A stretch of 38,850 nt of DNA from Planctomycetota bacterium (GTDB lineage Bacteria; Planctomycetota; Planctomycetia; Pirellulales; Lacipirellulaceae). The position numbers and the translations under genes are program-made. The notes beneath the pieces were generated by a model. The model saw nothing but the letters and a program-made list of their open reading frames with translations. It made no database searches and had not been told where the DNA came from. The stretch lies in assembly GCA_039190745.1 (NCBI GenBank), contig JBCCXZ010000036.1, positions 1-38,850 of the forward strand, in the 5' to 3' direction. Below are positions 402-9,502 of the stretch, piece after piece (the first letter of the stretch is position 1; the number at the start of each line of letters is the position of its first letter).

Positions 402-1466
402 TTACTCCCGGGCCGCCTTGAGCTTGTCGCCGTTGCGCTGCAGCCAGATCCCGCGGCGGTTGGCCTCTGTCATCGCCGCTGCTTCGACTGACTTCTCTTC
501 CCGCGTCTCGACATCGCGGAGCCGCAGCGAGACCGTCTCTCCTGGCAGGTGCTTCATGCCCCACAGCACCTCGATGAGGTCTTCCGCGATTCGCTTCTCC
601 CACCGCTCGCCGAACTGCCGCTTGGCGGACGCGGCGATCTTCTCGACCGAAAACCCGTCCAGCGCAAGCCATTCGTACGTGCGGCCTTCGTAATTCACAA
701 GCACCTTGCCGCCTTCGAATTCCACGCGGGTGAACGGCGAGAGCTTCGGCGGCTCCGCATCGGAGTTTCGGTGGAGCGACCGCAGCAGATTGAGTGTTTC
801 CTTGTTGCGTTCGGCGTAAAGCTCACGGCGGTTCTCTTCGGTCATCACGGCTTGCGTGACAAGTGTCTCCTCACGGGTCTCAGGGTCGCGGAGCTTGAGG
901 GACACCGTCGGGCCCGGCGTGTGACCCATGCCCGAGAGCACCTCGACCAGGTCCTCGGCCGTGCGCTTCTGCCACTTGCGGCCGAACTGCTTCTTCGCCG
1001 CGTCGGTGATCTCGTCGACGGCCACGCCGTCCAACTCCAGCCACTCATAGGTCTTGCCCTCGTAGTCCACAAGCACTTGCTGCTTCTCGAACTCCACCTT
1101 CGTGAACGGGGAGACCTTGGGGTACTCGCGGTGCATGGCGACGGCCACACCGCTGGAGAGGGCCAGCACCAGAAACGCCGCGGCGATCGACGACCACCAC
1201 CCGCGCGCCGGCGCCTCGTCGCCCTGCGGCATCGCGTCGAGGTACTCGGCCGCCACCTCGGTCGGCGTGCCGAACCGTTCGGCGAACCGCGCGTCGAGCT
1301 GCTCTTCCGACAACGCTCCTTCCGCGGAGAGCGCCCCGACCTCACTCGCGAGGAACTCGGCGGCGTCGCTCAGCGCGGTCGTTCGCACCGAGCGGTCCGC
1401 ACCGCGGAGCGCCTGCTTAAGCTGTTCGAGATACCTTCGGACGGCGGCCTGCTGCGGGCTTTGCAT
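402..1466 (-). CDS. Membrane-anchored hypothetical protein: N-terminal HAAS/DUF1700-like region, one TM helix, two tandem ~100-aa domains
   Basis: YLEQLKQAL...FGTPTEVAAEY N-terminus, hydrophobic IAAAFLVLALSSGVAVAM segment, duplicated PK(V/L)SPFT.VEFE...MTE.NRR domain, GGAG before ATG 1466. Confidence 0.8.
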   Translation of the reverse strand: MQSPQQAAVRRYLEQLKQALRGADRSVRTTALSDAAEFLASEVGALSAEGALSEEQLDARFAERFGTPTEVAAEYLDAMPQGDEAPARGWWSSIAAAFLVLALSSGVAVAMHREYPKVSPFTKVEFEKQQVLVDYEGKTYEWLELDGVAVDEITDAAKKQFGRKWQKRTAEDLVEVLSGMGHTPGPTVSLKLRDPETREETLVTQAVMTEENRRELYAERNKETLNLLRSLHRNSDAEPPKLSPFTRVEFEGGKVLVNYEGRTYEWLALDGFSVEKIAASAKRQFGERWEKRIAEDLIEVLWGMKHLPGETVSLRLRDVETREEKSVEAAAMTEANRRGIWLQRNGDKLKAARE

Positions 1467-1821
1467 GACGGTTCTCCACGACTGAGTCGACAAAGTGCTT
1501 GGTGTCGTGCCAGGCCGCGAGCCAGTGCTTCAGCACCGCCTTGCCGGCCTTGGTCACCCGGTAATACTTGCGGGGCGGGCCCGCGTCGGAGGGCTCGGTC
1601 CGGCTGGCGAGCAGGCCCTGCTTCTCCAGCGACCGCAGCACGGGGTACAACGCCCCCGGCTTCATCGGCAGCTCGCCGCCGATGCGCACCTCCAGCTCCT
1701 TGGCCACTTCGTAACCGTACATGGGGCGCTTCCGCTCGTGCAGCAACGCCAGCAGCGTCAGCGAGGTCGCCCCCGCGTTGAGCTGCTTCTGGAGGTTGTT
1801 CTTCGCGGCTTCGATGTCCAA
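1417..1821 (-). CDS. PadR-family transcriptional regulator
   Basis: Winged-helix signature MYGYEV...GALYPVLRSLEKQGL...PPRKYYRVT.AG; TTG start. Confidence 0.93.
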   Translation of the reverse strand: MDIEAAKNNLQKQLNAGATSLTLLALLHERKRPMYGYEVAKELEVRIGGELPMKPGALYPVLRSLEKQGLLASRTEPSDAGPPRKYYRVTKAGKAVLKHWLAAWHDTKHFVDSVVENRHAKPAAGRRPKVSRTA

Positions 1822-1876
1822 GTTCGGCCCCCTTCCTGCGGGGCACGCAACGAAGCGGCCCTCTAATGTTCACCTC

Positions 1877-1904
1877 ATACTAGTGTTTGCTGGATACTAG
1901 TCAG
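1877..1904 (-). promoter_or_regulatory. Candidate padR promoter/operator
   Basis: ATACTAGT at 1877-1884 and 1894-1901. The minus strand reads CTGACT-N16-TAGTAT. Confidence 0.4.
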
Positions 1905-1970
1905 CCCTTTTTCTGCCGCGGTACCTTCACGCCTACAAGAACCATTGAGCCTCGGGCGAGTCGCCCGGAG

Positions 1971-2879
1971 CTATTCAGCGGCGGCAAGATCGAGGTCGAA
2001 CACGACCCCCTGTTGCCACGAACCGAAGGCCGCATGGGCCCCGGTACCGTCGAAGGCCACGCTGCACGGGTATTCCAGCGGGGAGACAAGCAGCGGCTCC
2101 CCGTCCTCGGCCCGGTAGACCACGACGCACCCGTCTTGCACAGAACCCAGCAGCCGCCCGCACGGAGACCATCGGACCGCGTCGCCAGACCCGCCAATCG
2201 CTACGGTTCGCGACCAAGCCGGCTCGCCGCCTCCGATCGGGATCACGGCCAACTCCGACGGCGGCTGGCCGCTCACTACGGCCAGTTTAGCGCCGCACGG
2301 GCTGAGGGCTGTCGACCACACCCGTGGCCACTCCACGCGAAGCCGCTCGGGGTCCGCCGCGTCGAACGGCCAACCCCAACGCAGGCCGTAAGCGGGCGGA
2401 CGTGTTTCCACGCCGTTGGTTTGCTTGGGCGTGTGGATCGTCACCCAGGCCAAGCCGCCCGCGGCGGCGTGGACGCCGGTGATCATCTCCCCGGGCCAAG
2501 CGCGGGAGAACACGACCTCGCCGCTGTCGGCTCGCCGGGCCGTGAGCACCCCGTCCCAGGAAGCATCGACCAGGAACCCGCCGCAGGGCGAGACCACCGG
2601 GGCGCACCCCTCCCCCATCGACTCGTTTTCGTAGTCGCGCAGCAACTTGCCGGAACCGGAGTCGAGCAGCACCATCCTCCCGGAGGTGCTCTTCACGACG
2701 CACCCAGTGCCGTCCGGCGTGAACGCGGCGTGCGACGGGTGCTTCAGCGGGTGCGAAGTCCACGCCTTCTTGCGGGCGCTCAAGTCCCACAGACTCACGT
2801 CCCGGCCGAACGTCAGGCAGCAAGCGCCCGCCGGATCGAACACGACGTCGTAGCTGCGGCCGATCTTGAGGGGTCGCAC
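1971..2879 (-). CDS. WD40-like beta-propeller protein
   Basis: Repeated units such as VFDPAG, AFTPDG, VSPCGG, LSPCGA, WSPCGR, AFDGTG and SLWDL at ~40-aa spacing. Confidence 0.8.
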   Translation of the reverse strand: MRPLKIGRSYDVVFDPAGACCLTFGRDVSLWDLSARKKAWTSHPLKHPSHAAFTPDGTGCVVKSTSGRMVLLDSGSGKLLRDYENESMGEGCAPVVSPCGGFLVDASWDGVLTARRADSGEVVFSRAWPGEMITGVHAAAGGLAWVTIHTPKQTNGVETRPPAYGLRWGWPFDAADPERLRVEWPRVWSTALSPCGAKLAVVSGQPPSELAVIPIGGGEPAWSRTVAIGGSGDAVRWSPCGRLLGSVQDGCVVVYRAEDGEPLLVSPLEYPCSVAFDGTGAHAAFGSWQQGVVFDLDLAAAE

Positions 2880-2964
2880 AACGGACTCCGGGCCAACACC
2901 AGGATCTCACACATTCGCCGCACAAGCGTAGCATACGGGGCTTGGTCCGCCCGAACCCGAGGCG

Positions 2965-3102
2965 TTGGAACCTTCTTGGGCCCGTCCCCGCGGCCTCTAC
3001 CGCAAGCTCGGCTACGAAGAAGAGGCCCGCCTGTGCGACTTCTACGACGCGGGGGACGACAAGATCGTGTATTGGAAAAGACTGACTAGCGGACAGGGCT
3101 AG
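2965..3102 (+). pseudogene. Remnant of a GNAT acetyltransferase (C-terminal ~45 codons)
   Basis: Reads LEPSWARPRGLYRKLGYEEEARLCDFYDAGDDKIVYWKRL, a GNAT motif-B-like end. In-frame TAG at 2929-2931 and no N-terminal half. Confidence 0.65.
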
Positions 3103-3162
3103 ATGGGTTCGGAAGGGTTCGAATCCCAAGACCAAGCAATGTGATTCTCTTCGAACTGCCCA

Positions 3163-3717
3163 CTACGAGGCGAGCGCGAGGAAGACCGATGCGGTCGTGA
3201 GCGTGAGGATTAGCTCGCGAAGGCTAAACTGCCAAATGCTTAATGCGTAATTGGCCTTGCGGTAACGGACATACCAGACAACAGGCAGTATGAAAGCCAG
3301 CAGCGTGGGAAGCCATGGCCGAACAGCGATCACATAGTTGTAGTCGCCGTCTCCCTTGGACCAGCTCTTGGCAGAAAAGCCCGGTGGATCCGGCGCCATG
3401 AACCTGGTGTTGTCCTCACCAAGAAAAGTAAAAGTCCATCCCTCGCGATAACCGAAGGTCTCGCGAGTCCGTTGCAAGCTACCGTACTTCTTGAAGTACT
3501 CCGCCGTCAGTGGCCAGTAGTGCATGCGTAATCGGAGCGTGTTGGAGTACCAACTGAGGCCCACAAAGCGGGTACGGACTTCGTTCGTCTCGGGCCAGGT
3601 CACACTCCGGATGTGGATCTTCTCGGAGTGACAAAGGCTCCGGGCCCACAGCGCTGCCAGCACAAGGAACGCGACCAAAGAAACTGCCGACGCCACGTTC
3701 AACAGCCTTACCCACAT
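3163..3717 (-). CDS. Hypothetical membrane protein
   Basis: 184 aa with N- and C-terminal hydrophobic helices. Ends in QFSLRELILTLT, a motif common in planctomycete proteins. Visibly lower GC than flanks. Confidence 0.7.
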   Translation of the reverse strand: MWVRLLNVASAVSLVAFLVLAALWARSLCHSEKIHIRSVTWPETNEVRTRFVGLSWYSNTLRLRMHYWPLTAEYFKKYGSLQRTRETFGYREGWTFTFLGEDNTRFMAPDPPGFSAKSWSKGDGDYNYVIAVRPWLPTLLAFILPVVWYVRYRKANYALSIWQFSLRELILTLTTASVFLALAS

Positions 3718-3864
3718 CTCACTGCACCTCTAGGTAATTCACCTACTAGTTGCGTGTGGCCAAGCTTCTATCGACCGTCGATCCCGTCCATCGTAGTGTG
3801 AAAACGGCCTGAAAACCAAGTGTGCCGATGCCCGCGGCGCCCACAGCCGCATGGGAGCACGGCC

Positions 3865-4404
3865 TCAGCCAGACAGCTTGCCGATGAACGACGCGAACTG
3901 CTCCGCCTGATCTCGCAGACGCCCCGAGAGCTCCTCGTCCGCCAGCTTGCCGTCGACGAACGCGTTGAAGCTGTCGCCGATGAACAGCCGCCGGGGGAAG
4001 AGGTGCGCGTTGCGGTACCCGGCGACCTGCTGGAAGTGCTCGACCGCCCGCAGGGCCTTGAACTGGCCAGCGGCCAGCCCGATGAACGCGCACGGCCGGC
4101 TGTCCAAGCCCTCGGGGAACGGAAGCATGTCGACGAACAGCTTCAACACCCCGGGGTAGCTGCCGTTGTACTCCGGGATGACGAACAGCACCCCGTCGCA
4201 CGCCACGAAGCGGTCGACCAACGCCTGCACCGCCGGCGCCTTCTCCTTATAGGCGGTGGCCGCTAGCGCTTCGGGCGGGAGCTCCGCCATGTCCAGCGGG
4301 TCGACCTCGTGCCCCAGCTCGCGGTAGCACTCGGCCGCTTCGGCCGCCAACAGACGCGACAACGCGCCTTCCCGATTCGTTCCGCAAACCACCGCGATCC
4401 GCAT
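3865..4404 (-). CDS. NADPH-dependent FMN reductase (flavodoxin-like)
   Basis: GTNREGALS and PEYNGSYPGVLKLFVD motifs; AGGAG before ATG 4404. Confidence 0.92.
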   Translation of the reverse strand: MRIAVVCGTNREGALSRLLAAEAAECYRELGHEVDPLDMAELPPEALAATAYKEKAPAVQALVDRFVACDGVLFVIPEYNGSYPGVLKLFVDMLPFPEGLDSRPCAFIGLAAGQFKALRAVEHFQQVAGYRNAHLFPRRLFIGDSFNAFVDGKLADEELSGRLRDQAEQFASFIGKLSG

Positions 4405-4581
4405 CTGCACTCCTCTCGTGTGAAACAACTCCGTGGGATGGGGCATCGTACAGCGGCCTAGGCGTGTTTGGGAATCGGCCGCCGCCAAGCCGGTGCGCCC
4501 CAGGGCGACTTTCCGTGCCCCGCCCGCCGATCGAGGTTACTCTGGTCAGTAGATAGACCGCGATCAACGGAGACTCTTCTC

Positions 4582-5433
4582 ATGTCGAAAGACGGCAAGA
4601 AAGCCAAGAAGTCGAAGAAAGACTCGCCCGGCAAACCCAGCGGGAAGGACCGCCCGAAGCTGAAGAACAAGCAGTACGAGAAGGAGCTCGAAAAACTGCA
4701 AGTCGAGCTGGTCCGGCTCCAGGCCTGGGTCAAGCACACGGGCGCCCGCATCGTGGTGGTGTTCGAGGGCCGCGACGCGGCCGGCAAGGGCGGCATCATC
4801 AAGCGGATCACTGGCCGGGTGAGCCCCCGCGTGTTCCGGGTGGTGGCGCTGCCCGCCCCCAGCGACCGCCAGAAGTCCCAGATGTACTACCAGCGGTACA
4901 TCGAGCACCTGCCCGCCGCGGGCGAGATCGTGATCTTCGACCGCAGCTGGTACAACCGGGCCGGCGTCGAGAAGGTGCTCGGCTTCTGCGACGACCGCCA
5001 GCACGAGAAGTTCCTGCAGGGCTGCGACCGGTTCGAGGGCGCACTGGTCGACGACGGCATGCTGCTGATCAAGTACTGGGTGTCGGTGAGCGCCGAGGAG
5101 CAGCGCCGCCGCTTCCGGGCCCGCGTCGAAGACCCGCTGCGGCAGTGGAAGCTCAGCCCGACCGACCTCTACTCGGTGAGCAAGTGGTACGAGTACTCGA
5201 TCGCCCGCGACACGATGATGCTGGCGACCGACACCGACTTCGCCCCGTGGCACATCGTGCGGTCGGACGACAAGAAGCGTGCCCGCCTGAACTGCATCCG
5301 CCACCTGCTGAGCTGCATCCCCTACGAAGACGTGCCGGTCGACGAGGTGGAGATCCCCGAGCGCGAGACGACGCTTGAGTACGACGACGTCGCGTCGCTG
5401 TCGCGGCGGCGGTTTATTCCTGAGCACTACTGA
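4582..5433 (+). CDS. ppk2: Polyphosphate kinase 2
   Basis: FEGRDAAGKGG (Walker A), IFDRSWYNRAGVE and QWKLSPTD motifs; GGAG before ATG 4582. Confidence 0.97.
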   Translation: MSKDGKKAKKSKKDSPGKPSGKDRPKLKNKQYEKELEKLQVELVRLQAWVKHTGARIVVVFEGRDAAGKGGIIKRITGRVSPRVFRVVALPAPSDRQKSQMYYQRYIEHLPAAGEIVIFDRSWYNRAGVEKVLGFCDDRQHEKFLQGCDRFEGALVDDGMLLIKYWVSVSAEEQRRRFRARVEDPLRQWKLSPTDLYSVSKWYEYSIARDTMMLATDTDFAPWHIVRSDDKKRARLNCIRHLLSCIPYEDVPVDEVEIPERETTLEYDDVASLSRRRFIPEHY

Positions 5434-5609
5434 TCGGTGTCGGTCACAGGCCGTGGTCCTCTGCCCGGATCATTTCGCTCCGGACGATACACGACGATAC
5501 ACCTGGACACTAGCCGCCAGAGAATCGAGCTCAGAGTGAAGCGGGGCAAAATGGCCCCGGCTGTCAAGTAACCGCGCGCCACATTCCGGTAAGAAATCCG
5601 GAAAGTCGA

Positions 5610-5637
5610 TTGACAACCGCCCCCTCACCCGTATCTT
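5610..5637 (+). promoter_or_regulatory. Sigma70-type promoter (sense leader)
   Basis: TTGACA (5610-5615), 16-bp spacer, TATCTT (5632-5637). Confidence 0.65.
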
Positions 5638-5648
5638 ATGCCTAACGC

Positions 5649-5689
5649 AAAAACCCCGCCGAGCGCGGGTTCGCTCTCGACGGGGGTTT
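5649..5689 (-). terminator. Intrinsic terminator (minus strand)
   Basis: Minus strand AAACCCCCGTCGAG...CTCGGCGGGG followed by TTTTT. One pair is G-U on minus but C/A on plus. Confidence 0.65.
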
Positions 5690-5758
5690 GTGTGATTGCC
5701 GGCGGCTGGTACCCGGCGGCGATCGAGTCACAGGACCGTGTTTAGTCTCCTGCGATGG
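5649..5758 (-). ncRNA. Candidate ~110-nt antisense sRNA with three stem-loops
   Basis: Lies between the minus-strand promoter at 5765-5792 and the terminator at 5649-5689. Hairpins at 5728-5755, 5694-5724 and 5651-5689. Ends are approximate. Confidence 0.55.
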
Positions 5759-5764
5759 ATGCAA

Positions 5765-5792
5765 ATTCTAGCCAGCCCCTTAGCGGCGTCAA
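5765..5792 (-). promoter_or_regulatory. Sigma70-type promoter (antisense)
   Basis: Minus strand TTGACG (5792-5787), 16-bp spacer, TAGAAT (5770-5765). Confidence 0.65.
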
Positions 5793-5823
5793 CTAGCATT
5801 TAGTCCGGAATCAGACATTCACG

Positions 5824-5862
5824 GCCCTCCTCCTGATCGTTCAGGAGACGAGGGCTTTTTTT
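5824..5862 (+). terminator. Intrinsic terminator/attenuator
   Basis: GCCCTC-CTCCTGA-tcgt-TCAGGAG-ac-GAGGGC followed by T7. Confidence 0.8.
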
Positions 5863-6008
5863 GTGCCAATAGACCCAAAAAACTGGCCGCCTGCGAGTGC
5901 TGGCAAGTCACCCCGCAGGCGGCCCGATGTGCAGGCCCTACCTCGTGCCTCGAGAGGGAGATAAGCCTGCTGTTGCGTCGGGGCTAACCCAGTTATCTGA
6001 GGTGGTCC

Positions 6009-6143
6009 ATGAAGACCATCGACGAACTGGGGCGTGCATTTGTGTTCGTCCGGAGCTACTGGCGTCGTCCCGCCTACAGCTTCGGGCGAGGCCCAAAGAC
6101 TGAGCACGTCATCCAGCACGTCAGGCGACTACCGCGTCGCTAA
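6009..6143 (+). CDS. 44-aa Arg-rich small protein (below ORF-track cutoff)
   Basis: MKTIDELGRAFVFVRSYWRRPAYSFGRGPKTEHVIQHVRRLPRR*. GAGGT at 5999-6003 sits 5 nt before ATG; a strong hairpin follows. Confidence 0.6.
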   Translation: MKTIDELGRAFVFVRSYWRRPAYSFGRGPKTEHVIQHVRRLPRR

Positions 6144-6185
6144 CCTGGCCTAGTTGCCCGGCCGGCAGCCGATCTGCCGATTGCT

Positions 6186-6225
6186 GGCCTCGGGCGGTTG
6201 CAGCCGCCCGGGGCCTCTCTCGTTT
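6186..6225 (+). terminator. Terminator-like hairpin after the small ORF
   Basis: GGCCTCGGGCGGTT/AGCCGCCCGGGGCC stem, then TCTCTCGTTT (imperfect U tract). Confidence 0.55.
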
Positions 6226-6481
6226 AACTCTGTGTTTAATCGCCAACAGGCCAGTAGACGCAGTGGGGCGTCCATTTGCAAGTAATTCGATCAAACTCTC
6301 GGGCGAATACTAATCGGACTCCAGTTTGCGGAAAAGACCAGCAACCGCAGATATGGTTCCATGAAATCTTGCGGTTTTGTGCAGGAAATGCTGTCGCAGC
6401 AGGTTATCAGCGGACTCAGCGACTGAAGCGGTATAGGGCAAGAACGTTGCCGTCCTCCAGACACTCTAACCTCAAATTTCG

Positions 6482-9382
<2,901 letters not shown>

Positions 9383-9502
9383 AAGAAGACCGGCGCGGGG
9401 CGGAAAAGAGAGGGCCGCCCTCCTGTGGCGGCCGCCCACTGGTGTCCAATCCCGTAGGTTACCAGGGGTAGAACGCGGGGGCAAACGAGCGGCGGATGTG
9501 CG

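Follow-up and report, generated by a model that had tools for sequence, protein, structure and literature searches.

The 38,850-nucleotide (nt) stretch of DNA analysed here, referred to throughout as the window, is contig C36 (JBCCXZ010000036.1) of a 3.89-Mb, 125-contig metagenome-assembled planctomycete genome (GCA_039190745.1; G000 in our numbering), and our subject is the 1,048-bp spacer within it that separates the converging genes ppk2 (polyphosphate kinase 2; 4468-5433, plus strand) and uvrA (6482-9484, minus strand). We tentatively favour reading the locus in this spacer as a solo, mobile-element-derived cassette, in which a cis-antisense RNA would control the output of a tiny basic protein of 44 amino acids (aa). 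What appears to be new, from the sequences compared, is an unnamed and rare protein family tied to small integrative elements, with a look-alike of the antisense RNA beside it in one distant genome. An initial annotation, made from the letters of the DNA and a list of its open reading frames (ORFs), had described a stand-alone module of antisense RNA, attenuator and small protein; what it observed is confirmed here, with its interpretation partly supported.

A conserved gene for a small basic protein

The small ORF, the GAGGTG in front of it and the 13-bp hairpin behind it were all recovered as initially annotated (Table 1), with relatives of the ORF product coming to light only in an exhaustive search. 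A word-indexed protein search found the query only, and phmmer was needed, returning eight proteins at E ≤ 0.001 from 1.84 billion representatives, the query included. Five of these are small relatives of 38-82 aa that share 56-71% identity over residues ~10-44 (E values of 6e-8 to 6e-5). A profile search among 5.8 billion clusters gave seven proteins, one of them new beyond the phmmer set, and three DNA loci were added to the family: a contig filed as a Solirubrobacterales metagenome-assembled genome (L116), an IMG/VR viral contig (L118), and a locus of the complete genome G293 (L121; G293:C1:2053000-2065000), which belongs to the same order as the window and gave the sole match among 400 other genomes of that order. 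The binning of L116 is doubted, as its guanine plus cytosine (G+C) content is only ~52%. The family thus assembled has eight small relatives of 33-82 aa as called. Five other candidates were rejected: P0007 (1,693 aa, matching in 11 stretches) and P0008 (344 aa) as repeat or low-complexity matches, L117 for holding half of the motif only, and L122 and L123, two marginal matches in 400 further genomes of the phylum, as false matches to another frame of a transporter gene.

Alignment of the nine members reveals an invariant W-R-R-P...S-G-G...V...R core, which by eye is composed of two V-x-V-x-S-[YH]-W-R-R-like words with a P-P-Y-S-x-G-x-G-P-K loop between them. In three pairs compared at the DNA level, differences at codon positions 1/2/3 number 11/9/17, 12/9/21 and 10/5/24, with synonymous and replacement codons at 10/11, 13/13 and 17/11. 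Third-position differences dominate, and the pattern of the 44-aa ORF is therefore that of translated sequence. Together with its homologues, this pattern identifies the ORF as a genuine conserved gene, in keeping with the small basic protein proposed initially. By codon score the ORF would rank within the highest 6.6% of the 2,838 chance small ORFs, and it is one of 13 small ORFs that combine an ATG, a Shine-Dalgarno word and a score at least equal to its own. The words GGAG, GAGG or AGGA stand upstream of 25% of 2,503 called genes, compared with 9.8% of the 2,838 chance ORFs.

The AlphaFold2 model of the protein comprises five short strands and no helices, with a predicted local distance difference test (pLDDT) score of 74.9. 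No solved structure was found to resemble this model (best Foldseek E value 1.7; best VIA-align Z 2.7), the best ESM Atlas score of 0.80 is at chance level, and searches of Pfam, NCBIfam, PHROGs and PADLOC gave nothing below E 0.04, with no Rep domain in the protein. Judged by these searches and by the alignment, the 44-aa ORF founds an unnamed and very rare protein family.

Promoters, terminators and predicted RNAs

The promoters that had been proposed, one on each strand, stand where they were placed, each matching the sigma-70-type consensus at 10 of 12 bases, and a promoter scan found two sites compared with 0.3 ± 0.6 in shuffled sequences, the result being the same for the 3-kb stretch and for the 1,048-bp spacer. 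Since a bare consensus match says little, organism-specific controls were built from the genome. Only 92 promoter-like sites of at least 10/12 occur in its 3.89 Mb, with 75 of the 92 falling in DNA left as non-coding (22% of the genome) by a crude, self-trained gene caller, and most of the non-coding sites precede a gene of the same orientation by at most 200 nt. Non-coding T-runs of at least five bases behind a hairpin of -20 kcal/mol or better number 115, compared with seven for a mirrored A-run control, and a terminator of -15 kcal/mol or better is found within 400 nt of 10 of the 92 promoter-like sites, compared with none of 92 in the control. The pair in the spacer makes up two of these 10 promoter-plus-terminator units.

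Table 1. Features of the ppk2-uvrA spacer, and further promoter-plus-terminator units of the same genome
Feature	Position	Strand	Details
Sigma-70-like promoter P+	5610-5637	+	TTGACA-16-TATCTT; perfect -35, 10/12 match; predicted start ~5644
Sigma-70-like promoter P-	5792-5765	-	TTGACG-16-TAGAAT; 10/12 match; predicted start ~5758
Predicted ~110-nt small RNA	5645-5758 (start ~5758, end ~5647)	-	Three hairpins, the last being the terminator; fold -53.3 kcal/mol, z -4.56
Terminator of the minus-strand RNA	5689-5649	-	Hairpin + T5; -25.3 to -27.0 kcal/mol, z -4.57
Predicted ~220-nt RNA or leader	5644-5862	+	Fold -96.9 kcal/mol, z -4.19; promoter-to-terminator spacing 219 nt
Intrinsic terminator, proposed attenuator	5823-5862	+	T7; -23.4 kcal/mol, z -4.47
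Intrinsic terminator	5877-5925	-	Hairpin 5925-5885 + T6 at 5882-5877; -30.8 to -31.1 kcal/mol, z -3.72
Shine-Dalgarno-like GAGGTG	6000-6005	+	Upstream of ATG, inside a predicted 7-bp hairpin whose loop contains the start codon
Gene for 44-aa strongly basic, strand-rich protein	ATG 6009 to stop 6143	+	Homologues; codon-position pattern
G+C-rich hairpin, 13 bp	6186-6215	+	Weak T-rich tail; -30.0 kcal/mol, z -4.57
Second copy (19/22) of ORF-internal 22-nt word (6021-6042)	6257-6278	+	Repeat family D1
Further unit	C1:30364	-	
Further unit	C2:98622	+	
Further unit	C5:5994	-	
Further unit	C5:509	-	
Further unit	C14:31406	-	
Further unit	C17:57578	+	
Further unit	C32:28847	-	
Further unit	C47:17755	+	

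The plus-strand T7 and minus-strand T5 hairpins likewise hold as terminators (z -4.5 and -4.6), and three strong terminators are found within 280 bp of the spacer, in which three sub-regions fold better than shuffles (z -4.2, -4.6 and -4.9). On the minus strand, 112 nt separate promoter from terminator, and promoter, ~110 nt and terminator together form a sound prediction of a small-RNA gene. The predicted RNA is nested in the transcript expected from P+ and fully complementary to it, as had been described, with the initial ~115 nt of the plus-strand RNA forming its complement. Read on the plus strand, the T5 hairpin (5649-5689) is followed by a weaker U-rich run, and one G-U pair of the minus strand becomes a mismatch. 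No Rfam family matches 4500-7500 at E ≤ 1 or reaches its gathering score anywhere in the window, and the 220-nt plus-strand RNA holds no ORF with a ribosome-binding site or a hydrophobic product that would suggest a hidden peptide.

The 14 pairs of the T7 terminator form two 7-pair helices with a 2-nt bulge between them, and a further terminator of opposite sense, the minus-strand T6 terminator, lies back to back with it, 14 nt away. The hairpin of the latter (5885-5925) had been described as a long hairpin beyond the leader terminator; it is instead a minus-strand terminator, with A6 (5877-5882) before it on the plus strand, and the left and right halves of the locus could consequently be separate units. 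This T6 terminator may end read-through from uvrA that runs antisense over the small ORF. When the fold of the plus-strand RNA is cut before the 3' arm of the T7 terminator, the 5' arm (5820-5837) pairs with 5727-5740 inside the antisense target, whilst the full-length fold forms the T7 terminator regardless of this putative pre-emptor. The hairpin holding the GAGGTG (-14.5 kcal/mol, z -1.44) is not significant. Behind the ORF, the 13-bp hairpin is the probable end of its transcript, with 18 of 21 bases matching the hairpin that follows the homologue in L116 (E 0.05).

Probable linkage of the predicted antisense RNA to the gene

The regions upstream of the four ORFs with DNA context are unrelated by blastn, and covariance models were used to compare the RNAs, R1 being built from the minus-strand RNA of the window alone and R2 from the window and L116. 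The best foreign match of R1 lies on the minus strand of L116 (2438-2312), with 25.7 bits and an E value of 5e-4 in 23 kb; the next foreign match scores ~10 bits lower. The 2.4-Mb genome of L116, in which this match has E 0.05, holds no other at E ≤ 1. An AGGAGG box lies 30 nt further on, and a TTG that would start a 40-aa version of the protein lies 45 nt further on. The look-alike shares with the window RNA three hairpins, a GUAC-containing loop and an ACAAACC linker. A chance match on the same strand within ~200 nt of a homologous ORF is very unlikely in 2.4 Mb, and the pairing of RNA and gene in the window and L116 is therefore probably real. As no room for an ORF promoter remains in L116 between the RNA gene and the ribosome-binding site, the messenger RNA of the small gene must begin before the RNA gene and cross it on the opposite strand, as P+ would also make it do in the window. 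This part of the initial proposal, in which the leader of a tiny-protein messenger RNA is the target of a cis-antisense RNA, is considered likely.

The initial annotation had proposed conservation of the arrangement at homologous loci as a check, and this yields a same-strand RNA upstream of the ORF in L116, though by R2 none in L118 or L121. R1 also gave matches ahead of the ORF in L121, at 15.7 bits, and in L118, at 14.6 bits, but these were lost with R2 and were discarded as generic terminator matches. R2 gave no further match in five genomes or records, and degenerate DNA patterns drawn from the alignment of the window and L116 RNAs had no matches in viral contigs. A minus-strand terminator is present upstream of the ORF in all four loci (at -85, -129, -97 and -342), a shared feature given modest weight because these upstream regions are rich in terminators. 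Among the other loci, a plus-strand terminator stands upstream of the ORF only in L118, at -221. Between a plus-strand terminator (2768-2796) and the tiny ORF of L118 we also observe a 16-codon ORF (2822-2872) behind a strong AGGAGG box, possibly a leader peptide, with no counterpart in the window.

Mobile-element context of the gene and the ppk2-uvrA slot

Functions related to mobility adjoin the gene in all three relatives with DNA context. In L121 the tiny gene (5976-6077) lies 265 nt from a tRNA-Lys, inside an integrated element (964-6385) of 5,377 bp. Either end of this element is marked by a 45-nt repeat of the 3' half of tRNA-Lys(ctt), the two being 96% identical, with a G2P-like Rep (2527-3735) and a tyrosine integrase (3749-4894) between the repeats. 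The two differences between the repeats are compensatory in the T-stem, and the element additionally carries a 126-aa Cys-rich ORF on its minus strand and about 700 nt with no convincing ORF. An integrase gene starts about 1 kb downstream of the tiny ORF in L118. In L116, the stop codon is followed after 63 nt by a tRNA-Ile, then by a TacA/NikA-like gene and an IS1-like transposase; the tRNA-Ile (2668-2754; anticodon TAT), as called by ARAGORN, is unusually long at 87 nt. Given relatives that sit in integrative elements with Rep and integrase, the window cassette is best seen as derived from a mobile element.

At its present site the cassette has no such company. None of the 10 PF00589 matches of the genome lies on C36, in agreement with the earlier claim that no integrase is adjacent, and around the spacer no attachment-site (att)-like flanking repeats were found beyond 11-nt words, with no tRNA or tmRNA in 4500-7500. 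The lack of both an integrase on the contig and convincing flanking repeats makes the cassette a solo copy or a relic. The description of the module as stand-alone accordingly fits the window itself, whereas relatives of the ORF are found in integrative elements that also carry Rep and integrase genes.

The genus contains one other species, the sister species G001. Its flanks are 89% and 94% identical to those of the window spacer, but its own spacer of 2,042 bp shares nothing with that of the window by blastn or tblastx. Its ppk2-uvrA slot (L017; G001:C4:158000-172000) holds a PIN-domain gene (6630-7052, minus strand) with a 79-aa upstream partner, and the pair is flanked by two ~165-nt direct copies of the 3' end of uvrA and the sequence downstream (about 6443-6608 and 7450-7615), so that the PIN cassette looks like a recombination insertion at the uvrA end. 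A 234-aa orphan membrane ORF of low G+C (5634-6338) lies beside the PIN pair in the same slot. The slot is variable between the species, and the window spacer is a species-specific accessory insert. Its G+C content is 52-64%, compared with 65% for the genome. A translated search of plasmids gave rows at E 0.1 only.

The assembly of the spacer is borne out by a 1,109-nt contig of DNA run X1, which spans 5526-6634 with zero differences. Run X1 may be the source sample, and Logan contigs of three DNA runs (X1-X3) were compared; a search for runs containing the stretch gave one, labelled marine metagenome. The ORF and its hairpin only (6005-6218) draw slight additional depth from contigs of X1, X2 and X3 at a likeness of at least 85%, and related sequences may exist in other organisms of these samples. 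Elsewhere in the spacer, 5483-5502 consists of a 10-nt word repeated perfectly in tandem, 50 nt past the ppk2 stop and outside all predicted RNAs, and the partial second copy of an ORF-internal word behind the gene (Table 1) is possibly the relic of a duplication or a recombination joint.

Proposed working and alternative readings

In the working that we tentatively propose, P+ would start a plus-strand transcript at ~5644, its initial ~115 nt being complementary to the ~110-nt RNA from P-. Most such transcripts would stop at the T7 terminator, at 5862, with the few that read through carrying the 44-aa gene, and pairing of the antisense RNA with the nascent leader would lower the yield of protein, either because termination becomes more frequent or because the duplex becomes a target for a double-strand RNase, or through both effects. 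The protein itself may, as a guess, bind nucleic acid and be either the harmful component in an addiction pair of type-I-like kind or a small regulator serving its element. All of this is inferred: that the transcripts are made, that some of them read through, what the antisense RNA does and how the protein acts. The T7 terminator is placed where attenuation needs it, between the antisense target and the ORF, and an attenuation step there is one possible mechanism, a weaker claim than that of the antisense RNA.

A number of observations weigh against this working. For the proposal of antisense attenuation, the signals and the look-alike RNA in L116 stand, whilst the attenuator has no counterpart in L116 or L121, L116 having only ~30 nt between RNA and ribosome-binding site. 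In the window itself the T7 terminator is far more stable than the putative pre-emptor, and its back-to-back arrangement with the T6 terminator fits two separate convergent units equally well. With nothing found by R2 in L118 or L121, the RNA family has two members, and its covariation (92.5% of pair cells standard; six pairs changing on both sides, compared with zero to one when partners are slid) is suggestive only, the alignment being model-fitted and of two rows. The likeness to type I toxin-antitoxin loci, also drawn initially, extends to the layout and not to the product, which, in contrast to the usual type I toxin, lacks any hydrophobic stretch; nor do the fold and family searches point to an activity. 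The codon score of the ORF lies only at the 6th percentile of real-gene windows, a middling score that fits a foreign gene. Furthermore, the spacer DNA has no second copy in its own genome, no match in plasmid and phage collections and none in 80 metagenome ppk2 loci (kept from 162 ppk2 relatives, with uvrA as neighbour in none of the 80), and among 40 relatives and 119 family genomes, two and eight respectively gave matches, all of them chance-level pieces of 26-65 nt. Additionally, the run search lists no RNA sequencing run containing the stretch.

In a different account, which we consider doubtful, the locus consists of two independent, abutting units: a self-contained sense/antisense RNA pair (5644-5862, plus strand, and 5758-5647, minus strand) that does not control the protein, and a separate gene (6009-6143) with an unrecognised promoter of its own, the T6 terminator stopping either transcripts that run on from uvrA or some other antisense RNA spanning the ORF. 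Opposite-sense terminators 14 nt apart are usual between convergent units, the T7 terminator is strong, and a minus-strand terminator upstream of the ORF in four of four loci would suit an antisense transcript over the ORF itself. Pairing in trans between the small RNA and the region of the ORF start is no better than in shuffles, 24% and 40% of which equal it. However, no plus-strand promoter of at least 8/12 is present in 5863-6008, nor a minus-strand one in 5925-6480, and in L116, where the look-alike lies so close to the ribosome-binding site, a transcript of the ORF could hardly avoid overlapping it.

A more ambitious form of the cassette reading, unlikely on the present evidence, would make the locus a new kind of RNA-controlled mini-cassette, seated at the att-proximal end of small Rep and integrase elements, serving as an addiction or exclusion module and living solo in a chromosomal hotspot in the window. 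Its parts would be an arginine-rich, two-repeat beta-protein of 33-44 residues that has no known relatives and a conserved, three-hairpin cis-antisense RNA. If true, this would be a type-I-like toxin-antitoxin class with a soluble, nucleic-acid-binding toxin rather than a membrane peptide.

That the locus is instead a decaying relic, left over from the tRNA- or att-proximal tail of an integrative element after loss of its Rep and integrase genes, with signals that now have no role for the cell, is improbable. The missing integrase, the lack of att-like repeats, the lowered G+C content, the partial second copy of the 5' end of the ORF at 6257-6278 and the absence of the spacer from the sister species are all consistent with decay. 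However, the ORF is intact, with its start, ribosome-binding site and full conserved core, both promoters retain 10 of 12 consensus bases, all three terminators are strong, and solo persistence is typical of addiction cassettes.

Least probable of all is a DNA-architectural or recombination-directionality helper, a tiny basic partner of an integrase at att that is now an orphan with its former switch left as the RNAs, for although the gene lies beside att/tRNA or integrase in three of three other loci and its product has a high positive charge, with weak, chance-level structural rows to HU/IHF arms (Z 2.1-2.4) and a PHROG 'integrase' fragment at E 0.3, its 33-44 aa fall below the size of known excisionases (about 55-100 aa), its model has no winged-helix or Xis-like fold, no match of any kind is significant, and its retention without an integrase in the genome would be hard to explain.

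Further units and a second element in the same genome

Besides the pair in the spacer, the genome holds eight further pairs of a promoter (at least 10/12) and a strong terminator, 48-375 nt apart, which are candidate small-RNA or leader units (Table 1). A search with Rfam of nine other genome regions, comprising these eight units and a promoter pair on C4, named no family and gave one sub-threshold row. The C4 region (L130; G000:C4:113500-119600) contains at 1410-3472 a second integrative element of this genome, with a tRNA-Ser, an integrase (1493-2704, minus strand), a 78-aa ORF (2668-2904, minus strand) that by eye has a helix-turn-helix, excisionase-like look, and two promoter-like sites at 2926 (plus strand) and 3472 (minus strand), which face each other 546 bp apart with no large ORF between them.

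Significance and comparison with known systems

Small RNAs are barely described in the Planctomycetes-Verrucomicrobia-Chlamydiae group, and the small-RNA gene of the window is a concrete candidate for one. A full-text search of the small-RNA and antisense literature gave, among the matches listed, no such system in planctomycetes, and a full-text search on type I toxin-antitoxin systems in Planctomycetes likewise found nothing on such a system. To our knowledge, no planctomycete cassette of a type-I-like class with a soluble, nucleic-acid-binding toxin is known. The organism-specific controls show that, in this lineage, promoters of the sigma-70 type and intrinsic terminators can be recognised from the sequence. 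Furthermore, the 44-aa family travels with small integrative elements, and a role in the maintenance or movement of an element is testable in G293. One table of a 2022 review gives eight annotated small-RNA families for the group (PMC9029176).

Control of rep by countertranscript-driven attenuation is also found in pAMbeta1, and the nearest examples outside rep, on chromosomes or plasmids, are Anti-Q/prgQ and RnaG/icsA. The plasmids pT181 and pIP501 appear in a list of systems with attenuation by antisense RNA (PMC5415839), with RnaG described as promoting premature termination of icsA (PMC2879508). As in pT181 and pIP501, the window would encode a short, multi-hairpin RNA on the opposite strand, with its promoter inside the leader and its end near the leader start; an antisense RNA with its own promoter and terminator and complementarity to the leader is present here as sequence signals only. 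A Rho-independent terminator (5823-5862) lies between the antisense target and the ribosome-binding site, and the context is that of mobile elements. In contrast to these plasmids, the regulated gene would encode a 44-aa protein and no replication initiator, a second terminator of opposite sense intervenes between attenuator and ORF, the pre-emptor pairing is weak, and the attenuator is not kept in two of the three other loci.

Type I toxin-antitoxin loci resemble the window in combining a small protein gene with a ~100-nt antisense RNA against its leader, in a ribosome-binding site predicted to lie inside a hairpin, and in carriage by mobile elements with survival as a solo chromosomal cassette; in the sister species, this slot is likewise occupied by a toxin-antitoxin pair, although of a different type. 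Linkage of the antisense RNA to the gene extends to a look-alike in one of three other loci (L116), with generic minus-strand terminators only in L118 and L121, and pairing with the messenger RNA of the ORF would need read-through of the T7 terminator in the window. In contrast to type I systems, the predicted product, which is basic and rich in strands, has no membrane helix, 242 nt separate the end of the complementary region from the ribosome-binding site downstream, and no sequence relation to described families was found in Pfam, NCBIfam, PHROGs, PADLOC or Rfam.

The order of promoter, structured RNA, terminator, protein gene and terminator on one strand also recalls type III (ToxIN-like) systems. 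However, Tandem Repeats Finder reveals no tandem RNA repeat in 5600-6010, the only repeat being the duplicated 10-nt word outside the RNA, and the lack of RNA repeats excludes a type III layout; the protein, at 44 aa, is no ~170-aa endoribonuclease, and the window has a dedicated antisense promoter. For excisionases and recombination directionality factors, the position of the gene fits in three of three other loci, with no family or fold match and a model that has no helices. As the product is neither a Rep nor a membrane peptide, the locus belongs neither with replicon control of the pT181 type nor with the classical type I families, though it may still work like one or the other.

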